A stretch of DNA of 47,246 nt from Lachnospiraceae bacterium (GTDB lineage: Bacteria > Bacillota > Clostridia > Lachnospirales > Lachnospiraceae), in NCBI GenBank assembly GCA_047242405.1, contig JBKTKK010000001.1, forward strand, positions 1-47,246, read 5' to 3'. Shown here piece by piece: positions 4,807 to 16,553 of this stretch. How positions within the stretch are numbered: the first letter of the stretch is position 1; every line of letters starts with the position of its first letter. A model generated the notes under the pieces. That model made no database searches. It worked only from the letters and a program-made list of their open reading frames with translations, and was not told the origin of the DNA. A program made the position numbers and the translations under genes.

Positions 4807-6018
4807 ATGGGAGAATTAAGGACCAGAAAACGAGGGAAAACTTGGGAATACAGTTTTGAAGCTGCAAAAGTAGAAGGGAAAAGAAAAACAATTTCAAAAG
4901 GTGGGTTCCGCACAAAAACAGATGCCATTGCAGCAGGAACACAAGCCAAGGCGGAATATGATAATGCTGGGATTGTATTTACACCGTCAGAAATGTCAGT
5001 AGCAGACTATATGAATTATTGGTATGAGCAATATGTATTAGTGAATTTAAGGCCAAATACACAAAGTTCTAAAAAAAATATTATAAATAATCATATTGTA
5101 CCAAAGCTTGGTCACTATAAACTTAAAGCATTAACTCCTACTATATTACAAGATTTCATTAATCAAATTAAATTAAATGGTTTTTCAGAGAATATGCTTA
5201 TTGGAATAAAATCGTGCCTATCATCTGCTTTGTCATATGCGGTGCATCCCTGTAACTTTTTATCATCAAATCCAATGATCTATGTTAAGTCGCCTAAATA
5301 TACAGATATAAACAAAAAAAGAAATAAAGTAGGTATAAATAATTGGATTGTAACTCATGAATGTTTTGAAACAATTATCAATCGATTTAATGAAAATAGT
5401 AATTTTTATATCCCCTTAATGATAGGGTATTATGCTGGGTTAAGAATTGGAGAAACATTTGCACTAACATGGAATGATATTAATTTAAAAGAAAAGACGC
5501 TTACAGTAAATAAACAATTGATAAAGCATAACCGCTGTTGGTTTGTATCTCCACCTAAAACAAATAATTCATATAGAACAATTTATATTGGAGACATTTT
5601 AGTAAACGCTCTAAAAACTATAAAAAAAAGACAACTTGAAAACAAAATGAATTATGGGGAATTTTATTTTCACACCTATAAGCTAGATAATAACTTGATT
5701 CGCCAATCAATGCAAAATGAATTAATTACTGGAGAAGAACTTGATTTTATTTGCAAAAAAGAAAATGGGGAATTATTAACACAAGAATCATTCAAGTATT
5801 GTGCTAGAGTTATTCATTATGAATTAGAAATTAGTGAATTTCATTATCATGCCCTACGACACACACATGGAACAATATTAGCAGAAAACGGAGCTAATCC
5901 AGTAGCTGTACGAGATCGATTAGGACATGCAGATATTAAGGTCACATTAAATAATTACACCTTTAACACAAAGAAAATGGGCATCGATGCGGTCAATATA
6001 TTTGAAAATAATGCATAA
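4807..6018 (+). CDS. Phage-type tyrosine integrase
   Basis: N-terminal arm-binding region (GKRKTISKGGFRTK); catalytic GLRIGE, HALRH, RLGH and Tyr in TLNNY; SD AGGAGG; convergent on the rlmD 3' end. Confidence 0.95.
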   Translation: MGELRTRKRGKTWEYSFEAAKVEGKRKTISKGGFRTKTDAIAAGTQAKAEYDNAGIVFTPSEMSVADYMNYWYEQYVLVNLRPNTQSSKKNIINNHIVPKLGHYKLKALTPTILQDFINQIKLNGFSENMLIGIKSCLSSALSYAVHPCNFLSSNPMIYVKSPKYTDINKKRNKVGINNWIVTHECFETIINRFNENSNFYIPLMIGYYAGLRIGETFALTWNDINLKEKTLTVNKQLIKHNRCWFVSPPKTNNSYRTIYIGDILVNALKTIKKRQLENKMNYGEFYFHTYKLDNNLIRQSMQNELITGEELDFICKKENGELLTQESFKYCARVIHYELEISEFHYHALRHTHGTILAENGANPVAVRDRLGHADIKVTLNNYTFNTKKMGIDAVNIFENNA

Positions 6019-6102: not shown

Positions 6103-7453
6103 TTACTTAGATAAAAGAACGACCGTCTCCACATGCACCGTAGATGGAAACATATCAACAGCACATGCCTTTACTACTTTATAGCCTGCTTTTTGTAAAA
6201 TTTCTAAATCTCTTATAAGACTCGTTGGCTTACAAGAAACATAAACGATACGGTCTACTTGGAAATTAATGATTTTTTCCAACGCTTTTGGATGAATTCC
6301 GTCTCTTGGTGGATCTAAAACGATTAAGTCTGGTTTATCTGTAATCTCATCAATTACCTTTAAGACATCCCCTGCGATGAATTCACAATTTTCCAAACTA
6401 TTTAATTGGGCATTGATTTTTGCTGCCTCAACTGCCTCTTTTACAATCTCAACGCCAATTACTTTCTTGGCTACGGGTGCTAAAATCTGTGCAATGGTAC
6501 CCGTACCACTGTATAAATCAAAAACCTCCTTGTCCTTCGTCTCTCCAATATAATTTCTTACGACAGAATATAATACTTCTGCACCTAGGGAATTGGTCTG
6601 GAAGAAAGAGAATGGAGTTATTTTAAATAATAAACCTAACACTTCTTCGCAAATATAATCTCTACCGTATAAAATATTCGTTTTATCACTTTGTACGACA
6701 TCGGCCAATGAGTCATTTAACGTATGCAAGACACCAACAATGGTCCCGTCTAAATCCAATTGAAGCAATCCTTTTGTAAAGCCTTGACAGTCAATTTTTT
6801 CTTGCGTCGTTGTTACTAAATCTACTAAGATATCTCCAGTTTTTGCTGCTTTACGCACTAAAAGGTGCCGGAGTACACCGGTATGTTGCATCTTCTTATA
6901 AAATGGAGTGCCTTTTTCCTGAAAATAATTCAATACAAAGGTAAGAATCTTTCTATAGTCCTTATCAACGATTCTACAGTCGTTAACCGTCACAATGTCG
7001 TGGAAACTGCCTCTTTTATGCATGCCAAGGGATAATGGACCGTCTTTTACCTCATCGCCAAAAGAAAATTCCATTTTATTACGATACCCCGTTTGGATTG
7101 GACTTCCTTTAATTCCATCAAACACATAATCTTCAACAACACTGTCCAAAAGATTTTCACTTGTTCTTCTTTTATCTTTAGTTGTACTTCATAAGGAACT
7201 GATTGATAATTACAACTATACATTGTCCAAAATGGGCACATACTCCTTCTGTTAACTCATAACTAGCAGGCTCGATTACCTCTAATAACCGCCCCTCACA
7301 CTTATCTTTTCTAACTTTATTTACAGAAAAAGAGATTTTTTGTCCAGGAATCCCATTTTTAATCACTACTTTTTTATCTTCTACATGAACGACTGCTTTA
7401 TTTGGAAAATCGACTTTTTCAACAATTCCTTCAAAAATTTGTCCTTTTTTCAT
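6103..7453 (-). CDS. rlmD: 23S rRNA (uracil-C5)-methyltransferase RlmD/RumA, two apparent frameshifts near 7150-7225
   Basis: TRAM-like N-terminus; YRNKMEF, SFFQTN, DLYSGTG, DPPRDG, YVSC, DMFP.T.HVE; pieces spread over three frames. Confidence 0.93.
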
Positions 7454-9017: not shown

Positions 9018-9187
9018 ATCTTCCTCCTCTTTTGAAATAGATACTTTCCTATTTTGCCCTTCTAGGGAGAAGAAAACAGAAAAACTTTCGCCAAATCTGC
9101 TTGTAATAATTGAAACTAGTTCCATTTATTACAAGTAAATTTTAAGCAAACCAATTTAATGATAAATTTTCGCTTTCATAGCATTAG

Positions 9188-9225
9188 AAAAACAGGAGCT
9201 ATTGTTTCTTAGCTCCTGTTTTTTT
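9188..9225 (-). terminator. Terminator of the polyamine operon
   Basis: AAAAACAGGAGCTA..TAGCTCCTGTTTTT inverted repeat at the nspC stop. Confidence 0.8.
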
Positions 9226-10351
9226 AGGAAAGACGCATTTTAAAGTCTTTGTAACCAAATTGTTTTACAATTTCACATTGTCCATCGGTCTTTTGTATCG
9301 CAATAGCAGGCAATGGCATACCGTTAAACGTATTATTTTTTACCATTGAATAAATTGCCATATCCTCAAATATGAGTCGCTCTCCAACCGCTAATGGACT
9401 TTGGAAGGAATAGTCCCCAATTACATCTCCTGCTAGGCAGGTCGGCCCTGCGAGCCGATAGGTATAATCTTTCTCTCCAGGCCTTCCCGCGTCTTTTAGA
9501 GGGGGACGATAAGGCATTTCTAATACATCTGGCATATGACATGCAGCCGAAGTATCTAAAATTCCAATGGCAAGATCATTTTCTATAATTTCTAATACGC
9601 TCGTTACTAAATAACCAGCATGATAAGCAATGGCTTCACCAGGCTCGATATACACCGTTACATCATAGGTTTTTTGAATTCTTTTAATCGCCTTTTCTAA
9701 TGACGCAATATCGTAACCATTCTTTGTTATATGATGACCGCCTCCAAAGTTTATCCACTTCATATTTTTTAAATATGGACCAAACTTATCTTCTACTGCA
9801 TCTAGCGTTGTGAGTAATGCATCTGCATCCTGCTCGCAAAGTGTGTGAAAGTGTATGCCCTCCACTCCGTCGAGCTGCTCTGGTTGAAAATTTTTTAATG
9901 TCACTCCGAGTCTAGAACCTGATGCACAAGGGTCATAGATTTCATGGCCCTCCTGGGTAGAACACTCTGGATTAACTCGTATTCCTATGCTTACACCATT
10001 TTTCATCGCAATATCTTTGTACTTTTTCAACTGTGAAAAGGAATTAAATACGATATGTCCACAAAGTTTACATATTTCTTCAAACTCATCTTCCCGATAG
10101 GCAGGAGAGAAAATATGATTTTCTAATCCCATTTCTTCAAAACCTAGTTTGGCTTCATACAAGCCACTGGCCGTTGTTCCTGACAAGTAAGATTTAACCA
10201 ATGGGTAAACGGAAAACATAGCGAATGCTTTCTGGGCCAAAAGTATATGACACCCCGTTCGTTTCATAATACCTTGCAAAATCTCTAAATTATGAATCAA
10301 TCTTTTTTCATCTACGACATAACAAGGCGTAGGTAATTCATGAAACTTCAT
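9224..10351 (-). CDS. nspC: Carboxy(nor)spermidine decarboxylase
   Basis: LLAQKAFA, GIHFHTLCEQ, NFGGGH, HMPDVLEMPY, GPTCLAGD, FNGMPLP. Confidence 0.95.
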   Translation of the reverse strand: MKFHELPTPCYVVDEKRLIHNLEILQGIMKRTGCHILLAQKAFAMFSVYPLVKSYLSGTTASGLYEAKLGFEEMGLENHIFSPAYREDEFEEICKLCGHIVFNSFSQLKKYKDIAMKNGVSIGIRVNPECSTQEGHEIYDPCASGSRLGVTLKNFQPEQLDGVEGIHFHTLCEQDADALLTTLDAVEDKFGPYLKNMKWINFGGGHHITKNGYDIASLEKAIKRIQKTYDVTVYIEPGEAIAYHAGYLVTSVLEIIENDLAIGILDTSAACHMPDVLEMPYRPPLKDAGRPGEKDYTYRLAGPTCLAGDVIGDYSFQSPLAVGERLIFEDMAIYSMVKNNTFNGMPLPAIAIQKTDGQCEIVKQFGYKDFKMRLS

Positions 10352-10352
10352 A

Positions 10353-11555
10353 TTAGTCCACCAATTCTGGTGTTTCTGAAATTTTCCATGGTAAGCCCCA
10401 CTTATTTAATGCTTCCATAAATGGATCTGGGTCAAATTCTTCAATATTGTACACGCCGGCCTTGTTCCACTGTCCCGTTAACACCATCATTGCCCCAATC
10501 ATAGCAGGTACACCGGTTGTATAAGCCACTGCTTGTGATCCAACCTCTTTAAAACATTCCTCATGGTCGCAAACATTATATATGTAAATATCGCGGTCCT
10601 TCCCATCTTTTTTACCACGGAAGATACAACCAATATTTGTTTTTCCCTTTGTACGAGGACCTAACGATGATGGATCTGGTAAAACCGCTTTTAAAAACTG
10701 TAATGGCACGATTTGCTTTCCTTCAAATTCAATTGGTTCAATGGACGTCATTCCTACATTTTCTAAACATTTTAAGTGTGTTAAATAACTCTGTCCAAAT
10801 GTCATAAAGAAACGAATTCTCTTTATTCCCGGAATATTTAATGCCAATGACTCTAACTCCTCATGATGGAGCAGGTACATATCTTTATTTCCGATCTCTG
10901 GGAAGTTGTAAACACGCTTAATTTCCATAGGTTCGGTTTCTACCCACTTGCCACCTTCCCAGTAGCTACCTTTTGCCGATACTTCGCGAATGTTTATTTC
11001 CGGATTAAAGTTTGTTGCAAATGGATAACCGTGGTCTCCTGCATTACAATCTAAAATATCGATGTAGTTTATTTCATCAAAGTAGTGTTTTAAGGCGTAG
11101 GCAGAGAAAACTCCCGTAACACCAGGATCAAAACCGCTACCTAATAAGGCAGTCACTCCTGCTTCTTGGAATTTTTCACGATAAGCCCATTGCCACTTAT
11201 ATTCAAATTTTGCCGTATCTTCTGGTTCATAATTAGCTGTATCAATATAATGTGTTTTTGTCTCTAAACATGCATCCATAATTGTTAGATCTTGATATGG
11301 TAGTGCTAAATTTAATACAACATCCGGTTTTACTTCATTAATTAATGCAATTAACTCTTCTACGTTATTCGCATCGACTTTTGCCGTTGTAATCTTTGTT
11401 TTTGTTGTTTTTTCTAGTTTTTTCTTTAAGGCATCACATTTTTCCTTCGTACGGCTTGCAATACAAATCTCTTGGAACACCTCACTATTTTGACAACATT
11501 TATGAATTGCGACACTAGCTACTCCACCACATCCAATAATTAAAACTTTTCCCAT
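10353..11555 (-). CDS. Carboxy(nor)spermidine dehydrogenase (saccharopine dehydrogenase family)
   Basis: IGCGGVA, NLALPYQD, DTANYE, GFDPG, ATNFNPEINIRE; adjacent to nspC. Confidence 0.93.
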   Translation of the reverse strand: MGKVLIIGCGGVASVAIHKCCQNSEVFQEICIASRTKEKCDALKKKLEKTTKTKITTAKVDANNVEELIALINEVKPDVVLNLALPYQDLTIMDACLETKTHYIDTANYEPEDTAKFEYKWQWAYREKFQEAGVTALLGSGFDPGVTGVFSAYALKHYFDEINYIDILDCNAGDHGYPFATNFNPEINIREVSAKGSYWEGGKWVETEPMEIKRVYNFPEIGNKDMYLLHHEELESLALNIPGIKRIRFFMTFGQSYLTHLKCLENVGMTSIEPIEFEGKQIVPLQFLKAVLPDPSSLGPRTKGKTNIGCIFRGKKDGKDRDIYIYNVCDHEECFKEVGSQAVAYTTGVPAMIGAMMVLTGQWNKAGVYNIEEFDPDPFMEALNKWGLPWKISETPELVD

Positions 11556-11651: not shown

Positions 11652-12518
11652 CTAGCTTTCTTGAGCTTTTAAATACAATAAAAATTCTCTCGTTAGTTTA
11701 CATGCCGTAGCAGTGGAAACACCGCTTAAATCCAGTGGAGGACTTAATTCATTTACATCGCAACCAACTACCTTTCCTCCGCTACACACCGTTTTCATTG
11801 CCTCTAATAGTTGTAAAAAAGTAACGCCTCCAGCCTCTGGCGTACCTGTACCAGGAAATACAGAAGGATCAAGTACATCCAAGTCAATTGTAAAATAAAT
11901 AGGTTTCCCGTCTAAACGCTCTACTGTTTCCTTTAGACCATGAAAATCAAATTTTCTTGTAGTTACGTGTCCACGCGCTCCCCAAAGGAACTCTTCTTTA
12001 TCCCCAGAACGAATACCAAACTGATGAATTCTATCATCACCTAATAACTCCCAACATCTGCGCATAACACAAGCATGGGATAACTTTGCCCCTAAATAAT
12101 CCTCTCTTAAATCTGCGTGGGCATCAAAATGGATGATATGTAAATCCGGGTACTTTTCAACAACTGCTTCTACCGCACCTAAAGTCACTAAATGCTCACC
12201 GCCGATTAAAAACGGGAGTTTTCCATCGTTCAGAATTATAGATGCCCGTTCTTTAATATCGTTTAGGGCAAGTCTTGCATCTCCAAAACAAAGTTCTAAA
12301 TCACCACTATCAAACACAGAAATCTCGGTTAATTCTCGATTTTGATATGGACTATATATTTCCAGGCCGTAAGATTCTGAACGAATGGCACGGCTTGCAA
12401 AACGAGTTCCTGGTCGATAAGAAGTGGTCGAATCATAGGGTGCACCATATAATACGATTTCGGCATCTTCATAAGATGCGTCACAACCAATAAAAGTTTC
12501 AACATTTCTCTTCAACAT
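11652..12518 (-). CDS. speB: Agmatinase / ureohydrolase
   Basis: GGEH, DAHAD, DLDVLDP, PGTGTPE. Confidence 0.93.
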   Translation of the reverse strand: MLKRNVETFIGCDASYEDAEIVLYGAPYDSTTSYRPGTRFASRAIRSESYGLEIYSPYQNRELTEISVFDSGDLELCFGDARLALNDIKERASIILNDGKLPFLIGGEHLVTLGAVEAVVEKYPDLHIIHFDAHADLREDYLGAKLSHACVMRRCWELLGDDRIHQFGIRSGDKEEFLWGARGHVTTRKFDFHGLKETVERLDGKPIYFTIDLDVLDPSVFPGTGTPEAGGVTFLQLLEAMKTVCSGGKVVGCDVNELSPPLDLSGVSTATACKLTREFLLYLKAQES

Positions 12519-13359
12519 CTCTAAGCAACTCCTCTACATAAGCTGGCAGTGCAAATGCACCTGCATGCAGCTGTGGTGTATAATATTTTGTTGATAAACC
12601 TAGCATTTTCCAGCTAACGGCATTTCTATCATGTACGGGATGATATTTTTTGGAAGCAAAGCCAAATAACCAATGCCCCGATGGATAAGTAGGAATATGA
12701 GCCTGATAAACACGGCTAATTGGAAAACTTTCTACTATACGTTTATGGGCCCGTTGCATTGCAATGGCATCTTCCGTGTAAAAAGGACTTTCATGCTGAT
12801 TAACCATGATGCCATCTTCCTTTAACGCTTTGTAGCAGTTGCCGTAAAACTCCTTCGTAAATAGCCCCTCACCTGGCCCAAACGGATCCGTTGAATCAAC
12901 AATTATTAAATCGTATTCGTTCTCATGAGAGCGAATAAATTTTAACCCATCTTCGTAATAGATTGTCAATCTTTGATCATCAAGTCGACATGCCGTCTTA
13001 GGTAAATACTGCCGACAAACTTCTACCACCAAAGGATCTATTTCAACCATATCAATGTGTTCAATAGAAGAATAGCGGCTTAATTCTCTAATTACTCCAC
13101 CATCGCCCGCCCCAATAACTAAAACATGTTTTACCGATGGATGAACCGCCATTGGTACATGAGTTATCATTTCATGGTAGATAAATTCATCCTTTTCAGT
13201 TAACATCATATATCCGTCTAGGGTAAGAAAGCGTCCAAATTCTTTCGAATCAAATATATCTATTCTTTGAAACTCACTTTGCCCACTATAAAGCTGCCGG
13301 TCTACCCGAATGGAAAACTTCACATTCTTCGTATGTCGTTCTGTAAACCATAATTCCAT
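12499..13359 (-). CDS. speE: Polyamine aminopropyltransferase
   Basis: LDGYMM..DEFIYHEM, GAGDGG, DSTDP, PTYPSG.W. Confidence 0.95.
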   Translation of the reverse strand: MELWFTERHTKNVKFSIRVDRQLYSGQSEFQRIDIFDSKEFGRFLTLDGYMMLTEKDEFIYHEMITHVPMAVHPSVKHVLVIGAGDGGVIRELSRYSSIEHIDMVEIDPLVVEVCRQYLPKTACRLDDQRLTIYYEDGLKFIRSHENEYDLIIVDSTDPFGPGEGLFTKEFYGNCYKALKEDGIMVNQHESPFYTEDAIAMQRAHKRIVESFPISRVYQAHIPTYPSGHWLFGFASKKYHPVHDRNAVSWKMLGLSTKYYTPQLHAGAFALPAYVEELLRDVEEKC

Positions 13360-13362
13360 TTC

Positions 13363-14812
13363 TTATACTCCTTTCAATACGTTGAGACATTCAATATTTG
13401 GATCCTCCGGGCCTGTCATAGAACAACCTTTCTCTTTTGCATACACAATGTGGCTTAGAATATCCGCAGTTATTTTTTCGCCAGGAGCCAAAATTGGAAT
13501 GCCAGGAGGATAACACATAACAAATTCACTACAGATGCGGTCCACACTTTCACAAAGGGGGATCGATTCTTTTTGCGCATAGAACGCTTCCTGTGGCGAT
13601 ACAATTACTTTCGGTGCTATATATTCCTGTGTAACCATGCCATTTTTCTCTCGCTTATATAATCGACGAATCTCTGCTAGCGCACTAACCAACCGCTCAA
13701 TTTCCCTTTTTCTATCACCAATTGAAACGTACGCTAATATATTCCCTAAATCACCAAATTCAATCTGTATATCATACTCATCCCTTAGTAAATCGTATAC
13801 TTCAATACCGGCAAGACCAATATCAAGTGTGTATATGGATAACTTTGTCCGATCAAAATCAAAGATACTATCTTTATTAATTAACTCATCCGAATAAGCA
13901 TAATAACCGTCTATTTCATTAATCTCTTTTCTTGCATACTCAGCCATTGCATTTACTTGAGTGAAAATTTCTCTACCGCGTAGCGCTAAGTTTCTCCTTG
14001 ATATGTCTAAACTTGCTAGCAATAAATAAGAACCACTCGTCGTTTGGGTTAAATTAATAATTTGTCTTACATAACCTTCGTTTACATTTGGTCCTGTTAA
14101 CAACAAGGAGCTTTGTGTTAAGCTTCCACCTGATTTATGCATGCTAACCGCTGCCATATCCGCCCCTGCTTTCATCGCTGCAACTGGCATATTTTCCCCA
14201 AAGTAAAGATGTGTTCCGTGGGCTTCATCTGCTAATATGAGCATGTTATGTTTATGGGCTAGATGAATAATACTTTTTATATCGGAACAGATTCCGTAGT
14301 AAGTCGGGTTATTGACTAGAACAGCTACTGCATCTGGATTTTCTTTTATTGCTTGCTCCACCTGGGATACTTTCATACCTAAAGCAATTCCAAGTCGTTT
14401 ATCCACATCAGGATTTACATAGATTGGAATTGCTCCACAAAGAACGAGGGCATTAATCACACTTCGATGCACATTTCTTGGTAAAATTATTTTATCCCCT
14501 TTTTTACACGCCGTTAGTACCATTGTTTGTATCGCTGAGGTCGTTCCACCAACCATCAAAAAGGCATGGGCTGCACAAAATGCATCGGCTGCTAACTCTT
14601 CCGCCTCTTTTATAACCGAGATCGGATGGCATAAGTTATCCAAAGGTTTCATAGAGTTTACATCCACCTGTATGCAGCGTTCTCCCAAAAATCTGTTAAC
14701 TCCTGGTTTCCTCTCCCTCTTTATGACCTGGTACATCAAAAGGTACAATTCGCATATGACGAAACTTCTCTAGTGCCTCGTAAATAGGCGCCTTTTCCTG
14801 TGATAAGTTCAT
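13363..14812 (-). CDS. speA: PLP-dependent arginine (Orn/Lys/Arg) decarboxylase, 5' frameshift
   Basis: True start ATG 14812 with SD (MNLSQEKAPIYEAL..PFDVPGHK) is out of frame with the body; DEAHG, SMHK, YPPGIP. Confidence 0.88.
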
Positions 14813-14895
14813 ATTCCTCCTCATTTCTACACTGCATTTTTACGCATAAAAGGGTTTGTGGCGCAGCGCAGCCCCAAACTTTGTAGATGAAAGAA

Positions 14896-15660
14896 TTAGT
14901 CAAAAATATTCCGACCACTATAAATTTCAATCATCTCACGCCTTAAATTATTCGTTATTTCAAGTCTTACTTTCGGCGGTAATTCATATACATCAGCATT
15001 AAATAAATAATTCTGTAAATCAAGCTCTTTTATTAACATCTTTGTATGAAAAAGACTCGCTTCATACACATTAATATCAATGATGTCATATTTTCGTAAA
15101 ATCGTCTGATCTATATAATCTTGTATAGATCTTATTTTATGATCCATAAATAACTTTTTCCCATCCATGTCCCGCGTAAATCCTCGAACTTTATAATCAA
15201 TATTTATAATATCCGAGTCGAAACTGCCGATCAAATAATCTAACGTGGAAAGCGGCGTAATTTCCCCACAGGTTGCCACATCGATGTCTACCCGAAGGGT
15301 TGCTAAAAATGTGTCCGGATGATATTCTGGATACGTATGTACGGTAATATGACTTTTATCTAAATGAGCAGCAATCTCATTTCCCAATGCAGGAATCATA
15401 GATCCTTCTGCGATTAATAACGTCACACTCGCCCCTTGTGGCTCATAATCCTGGCTCGAAATATTAAGTACGGTAGCTCCAATCATATCGGCTACCTTTG
15501 TAAGTATGTTTGTTAGTCGGCTAGAATTGTATTGCTCATCAATATAGGCAATATAGTCTTTTTGTTCCCTAGGTGTTTTTGCATAACATACGTCATAAAT
15601 ATTAAAGCTTAATGACTTGGTTAAGTTATTGAACCCATATAGCTTTAGTTTTTCTCCCAA
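14896..15660 (-). CDS. speD: S-adenosylmethionine decarboxylase proenzyme
   Basis: LKLYGFNNLTKSLSFNIYD; self-cleavage region HLDKSHITVHTYPE; TCG; TTG start with GGAGG. Confidence 0.95.
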   Translation of the reverse strand: MGEKLKLYGFNNLTKSLSFNIYDVCYAKTPREQKDYIAYIDEQYNSSRLTNILTKVADMIGATVLNISSQDYEPQGASVTLLIAEGSMIPALGNEIAAHLDKSHITVHTYPEYHPDTFLATLRVDIDVATCGEITPLSTLDYLIGSFDSDIINIDYKVRGFTRDMDGKKLFMDHKIRSIQDYIDQTILRKYDIIDINVYEASLFHTKMLIKELDLQNYLFNADVYELPPKVRLEITNNLRREMIEIYSGRNIFD

Positions 15661-15699
15661 ACCAATTACCTCCGTCCTTGATTACCCTTGTTATCCGAA

Positions 15700-16131
15700 T
15701 TGACAACAAAAAAAAGCAAGTGAATGCACTACATGCACAACACTTGCGTTAAAATCGATTCTTTTCATTTTGATAATTAATTGGGTACAAAAAAGCTTTA
15801 TCCAAAATAAACAACAAAAAAAGAACAGAGTCTATATAGCAAACATTTTACTTTTACTACTCTTATTGACCGTTTCACAAGTTTTGCGCTAGTTGCACAC
15901 TGATTATTAAGTAATCAACTTATAAAATTTGAGCTTCAAACTCAATCAATAAGGCAATGATAGTATGCTTTGCATACTATCTGCCAATCGGCAGTTGACC
16001 CGGCTGTCCGTGTGGCCTCAACTCCTATAAGCGGAGTGGTCTAAAATATTTGCATGGAAATATCTCTATTCTTATAGCTATTCCATTACAGTTGTTCATA
16101 GGATGAAAGATTATGCTTTCTCATCCATACT
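15700..16131 (-). ncRNA. Structured 5' leader RNA of the polyamine operon (candidate riboswitch/attenuator)
   Basis: Upstream promoter, nested multi-stem pairings, two U-tract hairpins; no long ORF. Confidence 0.7.
15708..15747 (-). terminator. Intrinsic terminator within the speD leader
   Basis: RNA GCAAGUG..UGCA-UGUAG-UGCA..CACUUGC followed by U8, about 45 nt before the speD start. Confidence 0.8.
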
Positions 16132-16137
16132 AAACAT

Positions 16138-16166
16138 AAAATAACATAATTTCCAAATATTGTCAA
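16138..16166 (-). promoter_or_regulatory. SigA promoter for the speD leader
   Basis: Minus strand TTGACA (16166-16161), 17 nt, extended TGn-TATTTT (16143-16138). Confidence 0.65.
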
Positions 16167-16268
16167 TAATTATTTTGGATAGAAACAAAAAAGACCGCAC
16201 GAAACCATTCTTGATTTCTTACAGCCCTTTCTGCGTTCTAATAATTTAATTTTATAGGTTTTTTTGTG

Positions 16269-16553
16269 TTACTCTTCTACTGCGCGATCCGTCCCATCAT
16301 CTTCGTCTTCTTCATCATCAAAGAAATCGTCATCAAAGTCATCTTCGAAATCGTCTTCAAAATCTTCTAAATAGTCTGGCGTTAGAAAACGATAGACTGC
16401 ATATGCTATACCTGCTACAGATGCGATTACACCTATAATAGCTAATATCCAAATTAAAGTATTTTTTTTCTTATCATCATCTTCTTTTTTCTTCAAAAAT
16501 TCTGCAATTTTTGAAGCGTTAATCATCTCTTCTACTTTATTCATTGTATACAC
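16269..16553 (-). CDS. Small membrane protein with acidic tail (DUF4366-like)
   Basis: One TM helix then PDYLEDFEDDFEDDFDDDFF; start may be 16544. Confidence 0.7.
   Translation of the reverse strand: MYTMNKVEEMINASKIAEFLKKKEDDDKKKNTLIWILAIIGVIASVAGIAYAVYRFLTPDYLEDFEDDFEDDFDDDFFDDEEDEDDGTDRAVEE

Follow-up and report, generated by a model that had tools for sequence, protein, structure and literature searches.

The leader of a polyamine operon from a Lachnospiraceae bacterium appears to be a two-state attenuator, and likely a direct spermidine sensor that would switch the operon off at high spermidine; taken as a whole, we hold this reading to be just on the favourable side of even. Its parts carry different weights. 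The attenuator wiring is very probable, the polarity (high polyamine means off) is probable, and direct sensing by the RNA itself has a somewhat better than even chance. Polyamine sensing in Gram-positive bacteria is largely open, with one validated spermidine riboswitch, a rare SAM-I variant. The leader is a further member of the catalogued ldcC orphan family, and what goes beyond the catalogue is the extension of the conserved RNA, the optional nature of the catalogued arm, and the antiterminator. We found no printed account of these three in a literature search.

The polyamine operon and its surroundings

The window (the whole stretch of DNA that was analysed, 47,246 nucleotides) carries the leader on the minus strand, flanked by a small gene upstream (16269-16553) and by speD downstream (15660-14896). 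The operon has the gene order speD-speA-speE-speB-CASDH-nspC, as follows.

14896-15660, minus strand: speD, E. coli-type S-adenosylmethionine decarboxylase (TIGR03331, 388.8 bits against a cut-off of 255.8)
13363-14812, minus strand: speA-type Orn/Lys/Arg decarboxylase, with a frame shift near 14720-14690
12499-13359, minus strand: speE, spermidine synthase (NF002010 and TIGR00417 above cut-off)
11652-12518, minus strand: speB, agmatinase (TIGR01230 above cut-off)
10353-11555, minus strand: carboxy(nor)spermidine dehydrogenase-like (CASDH) gene (NF043000, 434.8 bits, below the cut-off of 800)
9224-10351, minus strand: nspC, carboxynorspermidine decarboxylase (TIGR01047 above cut-off)

speD begins with a TTG start, with GGAGGU at 15673-15668, and the CASDH-like protein (10353-11555) has saccharopine-dehydrogenase domains. 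The speA-type decarboxylase has its ATG at 14812, and the frame is lost right behind the PFDVPGHK motif. Since other genes in the window are also split (7178-7453/6103-7149, 8532-9125/7646-8659 and 20624-20896/20215-20589), the speA frameshift points to an assembly indel error rather than to a pseudogene. A hairpin at 14860-14890 (minus strand), between speD and speA and before the speA ribosome site, is possibly a processing or repeat element, and a perfect 14-bp inverted repeat behind nspC (within 9120-9230) is likely the operon terminator.

The small upstream gene (16269-16553, minus strand) encodes a 94-aa protein with a single hydrophobic segment and a very acidic tail of repeated DFEDD-like units; it had no match in Pfam or NCBIfam, and the gene has a strong terminator of its own (-28.5 kcal/mol). 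Further away, the ORF at 4807-6018 (plus strand), which from its motifs we take to be tyrosine-integrase-like, ends beside the 3' end of the RNA methyltransferase gene 6103-7149, and the junction is likely a mobile-element boundary.

The leader is a member of the ldcC family

The original prediction had treated the leader as unrecognised. We observed a single Rfam match in the window, to RF02440 (SpF59/ldcC RNA) at 15988-16042, which covered model positions 1-54 of 54 with 62.5 bits against a cut-off of 37.2. The GC-rich segment that had been left unclassified belongs to this catalogued motif (PMC5737381). The prediction was right that the leader is not a SAM-I, T-box or lysine riboswitch; these families, and the M-box (ykoK), gave no match at the gathering cut-off or at E values up to 10, and a permissive Rfam scan of 15600-16300 added nothing but a chance snoRNA match (E 6.3).

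As described in the ldcC passage of Weinberg 2017 (PMC5737381), the motif is a bulged hairpin with a possible pseudoknot of invariant bases, and it lies in the 5' UTRs of decarboxylase (SAM/arginine), C39A peptidase and potA genes of Firmicutes/Bacillota. That passage suggests a possible role in polyamine homeostasis, and names no ligand, terminator or antiterminator. The genomic setting here fits, as speD follows the leader and its homologues were found in Bacillota records ahead of polyamine genes. It had been foreseen that a match to a characterised family would remove the novelty of the leader. Such a match was found, but ldcC is catalogued without a known ligand, and novelty is therefore reduced rather than removed. 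Our literature search found no account of an extension beyond the ldcC model or of a ligand test (the supplement of Weinberg 2017 may say more), and no binding or termination experiment for the family; a C. difficile review (PMC11477304), in its accessible part, does not mention ldcC.

The copy in this window is an ordinary family member. RF02440 matched in 16 of 101 related genomes and in 5 of 151 across the phylum. This genome (75% complete) contains one match, and no second copy was seen ahead of its potA-like genes at the three loci checked. A search for RNA runs containing this DNA found none, and the one run inspected had just fragments, one of them the armless core of a relative.

The conserved RNA extends far beyond the catalogued motif

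Conservation runs from about 16090 to 15826 (about 265 bases), far past the 54-base RF02440 model. Homologues were collected with a pattern for the 3' part, which gave at least 120 genome loci, and with an arm pattern, which gave 120 loci from metagenomes and 83 from viruses. When these were compared with a profile built on the extended region, 117 of the 120 listed genome loci matched, as did 31 of the 120 metagenome loci (one by chance) and none of the 83 viral (phage) hits. The three genome hits without a profile match were dropped, as was one chance hit in a coding region (L161). Loci with the arm, the core and the 3' RCTCT were then reduced from 104 to 84 by removing sequences more than 88% alike, and these 84 are the homologues referred to below. 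The elements of the leader are as follows.

16166-16138, minus strand: promoter, sigma-70-type, TTGACA-17-TATTTT with TG (extended -10), 10 of 12 matches
16101-16126, minus strand: extra 5' hairpin, -8.4 kcal/mol
16073-16064/15830-15821 and 16099-16091/15815-15807, minus strand: P-1, closing helix (5' strands within 16064-16099)
16054-16086, minus strand: P0, 5' hairpin
16042-16053 (5' strand)/15850-15839, minus strand: P1, 12 bp, closes the multi-branch domain
15988-16042, minus strand: ldcC/SpF59 motif, the optional arm, with P2, P2a, P2.1 and a possible invariant pseudoknot
15953-15985, minus strand: P3 hairpin, of which the 10-bp hairpin 15959-15981 is a variable extension
15862-15953, minus strand: conserved core, comprising P4, P5, P6, P7 and P8
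15953-15945/15870-15862, minus strand: P4, outer helix of the core
15945-15929, minus strand: P5, hairpin, -4.3 kcal/mol
15928-15917/15883-15872, minus strand: P6, first pair an A-C wobble, replaced by G-U in other species
15917-15901, minus strand: P7, hairpin, -1.7 kcal/mol
15899-15885, minus strand: P8, hairpin, -4.7 kcal/mol
15876-15889, minus strand: antiterminator strand, the 3' strands of P8 and P6 (ACUUGUG)
15827-15863, minus strand: P9, AGAGU/ACUCU hairpin, competes with P1 and P-1
15708-15747, minus strand: intrinsic terminator, -16.3 kcal/mol, 8 U, CARGY motif in the 5' arm

All the helices and hairpins of the original prediction were found on the minus strand where it had placed them, including the outer helix (15953-15946 with 15869-15862), the 10-bp hairpin 15959-15981 (-11.6 kcal/mol) and an 11-bp helix (15927-15917 with 15883-15873) that lies within P6 and contains two G-U pairs. 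The folding energy of the 486-nt leader was -139.6 kcal/mol (z = -6.26), and none of 100 shuffled sequences folded as well. The predicted promoter was also present. Its site was the best among 8 sites where 5.9 are expected by chance, which is weak taken alone; its placement recurs in 70 of the 84 homologues, at a median of 41 nt ahead of helix P1. Transcription would start at about 16131, as judged from this promoter. The extra 5' hairpin exceeds the usual spacer length of the homologues and is probably particular to this copy.

We evaluated the helices by alignment, by covariation and by partner exchange. In 40 aligned leaders, the 61 named pairs were paired in 90.6% of cases (slid pairs, about 31-43%), and double-sided changes were seen in 101 cells against 47 in shuffles. 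A tree-based covariation analysis of the 84 sequences placed five pairs above the null, and these five, which were also the top five, all belong to P2/P2a, the bulged hairpin of the motif. In this copy, A-A takes the place of the outermost P2 pair. The possible pseudoknot (16010-16005 with 15993-15989) is complementary here, and was paired in 99% of cells without a compensatory change among 40 sequences. The next-ranked covarying pair was the non-standard 15928-15872 (E about 0.6), which is A-C in 104 of 145 sequences and G-U in 20 of 145, two wobbles of like shape; only about 3-5 changes on the tree account for it. A T-loop reading of the UGAAA in P6 was dropped, as these bases pair and the A-C/G-U wobble lengthens the helix.

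The peripheral helices P1 and P-1 vary freely in sequence, and their own partners are still preferred. P1 preferred its own partner in 78 of 84 homologues (-9.0 kcal/mol, against -6.4 with the partners of others and -3.7 shuffled). For P-1, the 5' leader paired more stably with its own tail than with the tails of other loci in 63 of 84 (-16.4 vs -12.9 kcal/mol). P0, which is mutually exclusive with P-1, beat shuffled sequences in 79 of 84 (-8.5 vs -4.0 kcal/mol).

So little varies in P4, P6 and the pseudoknot that covariation hardly tests them; seven of the eight P4 pairs never vary. Part of the P4/P6 invariance comes from the sample, which was mostly drawn with a pattern inside their strands. 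In the loci found through the arm instead, P4 closed the predicted fold in 38 of 44, and divergent copies keep the pairing by G-U, C-G and double changes. P9 retained GAGU and ACUC in 107 of 142 sequences and was 93% paired, but its covariation was not above shuffles.

A divergent subtype (L004 and L244) has an altered P4 and a GAGC/GCUC version of P9. Much reduced leaders were also found (L047, L112 and L342) and are useful as minimal constructs; L047 consists of little beyond P4, the ACUUGUG strand and, directly after them, a terminator, and L342 has the ldcC arm with a shortened core, ahead of an agmatinase gene.

The catalogued arm is optional and the core is retained

In the sequences compared, the catalogued ldcC arm is optional and the core is not. 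Twenty-one loci failed the arm pattern despite enough upstream DNA; by eye, 13 were armless, one had a remnant and seven had divergent arms. Among eight other genomes of the same genus, none matched RF02440, while six had the 3' core, three without an arm and three with a decayed remnant. At least two of these precede the same speD. The remnants (L351, L352 and L353) stand before an intact core, showing arm loss in progress. All 44 arms in a leader setting that were found without selecting for the core possess it; nine further arm-pattern hits without a core were GC-rich chance matches by eye, and two were too short to judge.

One terminator and a co-evolving antiterminator

The original prediction had proposed tandem terminators. 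The downstream one (15708-15747) stood as described, with -16.3 kcal/mol and 8 U. The upstream AGAGU..ACUCU element with its U-tract (15816-15863) is present in this copy (-7.2 kcal/mol, the U-run lying 4 nt past the stem), but it is not conserved as a terminator, since the U-tract behind this hairpin had at least six U in only 7 of 114 sequences, five U in another 7 and fewer in 100. The U-run behind P9 here is the 3' strand of P-1. There is thus one conserved terminator (15708-15747) and not two. A terminator of -12 kcal/mol or better was present in 62 of the 84 homologues, 44-205 nt (median 78) past the domain, and had CARGY in its 5' arm in 52 of the 62; the other 22 had no terminator under the cut-offs used, some of them owing to short loci. 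A simple terminator scan found none, because the real terminator has an internal loop.

The 5' arm of the terminator can pair with the 3' strands of P8 and P6. Here 15889-15876 pairs with 15748-15735 (7 + 6 bp), and an antiterminator duplex of -8 kcal/mol or better was found in all 62 homologues with a terminator. The duplex averaged -14.9 kcal/mol with the locus's own terminator arm, -12.4 with the arms of other loci and -7.4 with shuffled arms. The own arm was better in 57 of the 62. As controls, the terminator arm was set against five other segments, namely the tail, the P1 3' strand, the P4/P5 5' strand, the ldcC arm and the 5' leader; at 19-28 of 62 none gave an own-partner signal, and these pairings were rejected. 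By eye, the terminator arm of this copy appears complementary to the P1 3' strand. Another candidate, the extended P5 hairpin as an ON-state partner of the P4/P6 5' strands, reached a pairing probability of at most 0.24 and was also rejected. In a side set of 20 armless, same-genus or streptococcal loci, the antiterminator beat shuffles by at least 2 kcal/mol in 13; the misses include the two streptococcal loci, and two loci of the set were too short to contain the terminator.

By these computational antiterminator tests, the leader has a riboswitch-type expression platform that is excluded by the domain fold. The proposal of a conserved cis-acting attenuator of polyamine genes is backed by a terminator/antiterminator pair that passes comparative tests.

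We also estimated the balance of the two states at the decision point. In the energy model, the difference ON minus OFF had a median of +2.7 kcal/mol. The two folds were no more than 5 kcal/mol apart in 38 of 62 homologues, and the predicted ground state was ON in 17 and OFF in 45. For this copy without ligand, OFF was ahead by 7.8 kcal/mol (-107.9 vs -100.1), so that read-through here would need kinetic trapping, unless the model overstates the gap. A NusG pause motif was not enriched (17 of 62, 13.6 expected).

Regulated genes and proposed mechanism

The first gene behind the leader was scanned in 90 of 105 loci (the window's own and 14 metagenome loci were left out), and all 90 matched polyamine synthesis or uptake families, namely 49 Orn/Lys/Arg decarboxylases, 15 SAM decarboxylases, 10 CASDH-type proteins and 16 ABC ATPases. 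For all 16 ATPases the spermidine/putrescine PotA models were the best among the matches listed, with scores under the cut-offs. Five further first ORFs, from divergent or new loci, comprised four of polyamine or ABC type and one M28 peptidase lipoprotein (L004). Synthesis and import under one switch suggest the end product as the ligand. SAM derivatives play no part in CASDH or PotA function, and operons that begin with CASDH argue against such derivatives as the ligand. The gene context thus favours spermidine over dcSAM or agmatine.

In the proposed OFF fold, P-1, P1, P4 and P6 would close a compact multi-branch domain that hides the antiterminator strand; the terminator would then form and a 424-nt RNA would be released. 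In the ON fold, P0 and P9 would stay in place as local hairpins, the terminator 5' arm would invade P8/P6, and the polymerase would read on into speD-speA-speE-speB-CASDH-nspC. Spermidine binding, or polyamine-driven compaction, may tip the balance to OFF, within a decision window of about 80 nt of transcription between the domain and the terminator. Because the Rfam arm can be lost, the ligand site is placed, putatively, in the P4/P6 core and the junctions.

A broader proposal, to which we give slightly less than an even chance, is that Bacillota have their principal and widespread class of spermidine riboswitch in the ldcC leader at full length, a polycation sensor of 265 nt with an A/U-rich G-U core and a detachable arm. 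If so, it would be among the largest aptamer domains, reading the polyamine level via the folding of a G-U-containing A/U-rich core, and the pseudoknotted arm would be a separable second module, used for tuning or as a second ligand site, lost or decaying between lineages, even inside one genus.

Published pneumococcal data

The S. pneumoniae member, F59, is described between SP0915 and SP0916 (PMC3395615), inside srn235/Spd_sr49, and srn235/F59/Spd_sr49 as a discrete 327-nt RNA just upstream of SP0916 (PMC12323649), which is an arginine decarboxylase gene (PMC7531197). An alternative length of 251 nt is reported for srn235 (PMC7196914), and the published ends of this RNA disagree (82, 251 and 327 nt). 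The predicted start-to-terminator lengths of two streptococcal homologues, 330 and 353 nt, are close to 327 nt, in a comparison made by published lengths.

As reported, deletion of potABCD, with lower polyamines, raised speA 16.9-fold and speE 14.4-fold by qRT-PCR, whereas both were unchanged in RNA-seq of the same deletion (PMC8540371). Under a transport inhibitor, expression of the operon rose 1.4-1.9-fold; under DFMO, two of its genes fell 1.5-fold (PMC10887117). These data lean toward low polyamine being ON, but are mixed.

Alternative explanations

The same wiring could be controlled by a protein, with a polyamine-responsive RNA-binding protein sitting on the invariant A/U-rich P4/P6 and holding OFF (or ON). 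We consider this unlikely, though it is the most probable of the alternatives. Helices that conserve sequence beyond pairing, such as P4 with seven of its eight pairs invariant, are typical of protein recognition, but the invariance is also explained by the two partners that the P6 and P1 strands each have, and partly by the sampling pattern. The operon contains no regulator gene, and the leader is, to our knowledge, far larger than known protein-bound attenuators. In Grad-seq, srn235 peaked in fractions 3-4 and trailed through all fractions, with 0.45 in the pellet (PMC7196914), which would be compatible with a protein partner. Somewhat less probable still is a riboswitch for another metabolite (dcSAM, MTA, SAM, agmatine or carboxyspermidine), perhaps working as an ON switch by stabilising the P0, P9 and antiterminator fold. 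speD is the first gene here and in 15 of the 90 loci, OFF is favoured by the ligand-free model here and in 45 of 62 homologues, conservation of the P9 strands is strong, and the DFMO result (PMC10887117) is in the same direction. On the other hand, 26 of the 90 first genes encode PotA or CASDH, proteins that make no use of SAM derivatives, a precursor that switches on an importer makes little sense, and the rise of speA and speE by qRT-PCR in the potABCD deletion (PMC8540371) is opposed to it.

We regard as improbable a mostly constitutive terminator with little conditional read-through, whose product would act in trans or as a stand-alone RNA like srn235. Several studies have listed the pneumococcal RNA as an sRNA, and F59 is tied to lung fitness (PMC4387999), but that effect could be a polar one on speA. 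The model predicts OFF as the ground state here, yet a co-evolving antiterminator would be purposeless in a constitutive terminator, and in each of the 90 loci scanned the RNA lay in cis to polyamine genes. Ribosome-controlled attenuation through a leader peptide is very improbable. An AUG does stand at the P0/P1 junction here and in some relatives, but the frame here ends after 4 codons, no single frame opened by an ATG crosses the ldcC arm in more than 31 of 122 homologues, and nine homologues have 1-2 nt deletions in the arm; among the 122, no conserved short ORF across the switch was seen. The attenuator with direct spermidine sensing remains our preferred reading.

Implications and comparison with known systems

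A test built on the 54-nt ldcC model would omit the sequence that connects to the terminator. With the boundaries corrected to about 16100 to 15700 and the antiterminator pairing named, constructs are at hand, the natural armless versions of the same genus serve as controls, and the ligand question is directly testable. The answer matters for the spermidine that gut Bacillota produce and for the speA operon of the pneumococcus.

With ldcC/SpF59 (RF02440), the leader shares a full-length match (62.5 bits), the bulged hairpin, perhaps the pseudoknot of invariant bases, and the place ahead of SAM/arginine decarboxylase and potA genes in Bacillota; the model, in contrast, comprises 54 of about 265 conserved bases, and the arm that it models is optional. 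The validated spermidine riboswitch (Salvail 2023, PMC10853860) is a rare SAM-I variant with 13 representatives. The kinds of genes are alike (ldcC, speE, speB), as is the proposed logic, in which spermidine leads to premature termination. However, the ldcC leader has no SAM-I match, a different fold and, going by that report, a much wider spread.

The proposed wiring resembles that of the mgtE M-box, where, as described in PMC11602163, the 3' end of the domain pairs with the 5' part of the terminator at low Mg2+. In both, the 3' end of a large domain can pair with the terminator 5' arm when unfolded, and in the ldcC leader too, cation-driven folding would free the terminator. The ldcC leader differs in having no Rfam M-box match, other genes, a spacer of 44-205 nt to the terminator and no enrichment of the NusG pause motif. 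The leader is best read as an M-box-like attenuator that is off at high polyamines, and that may sense spermidine directly.
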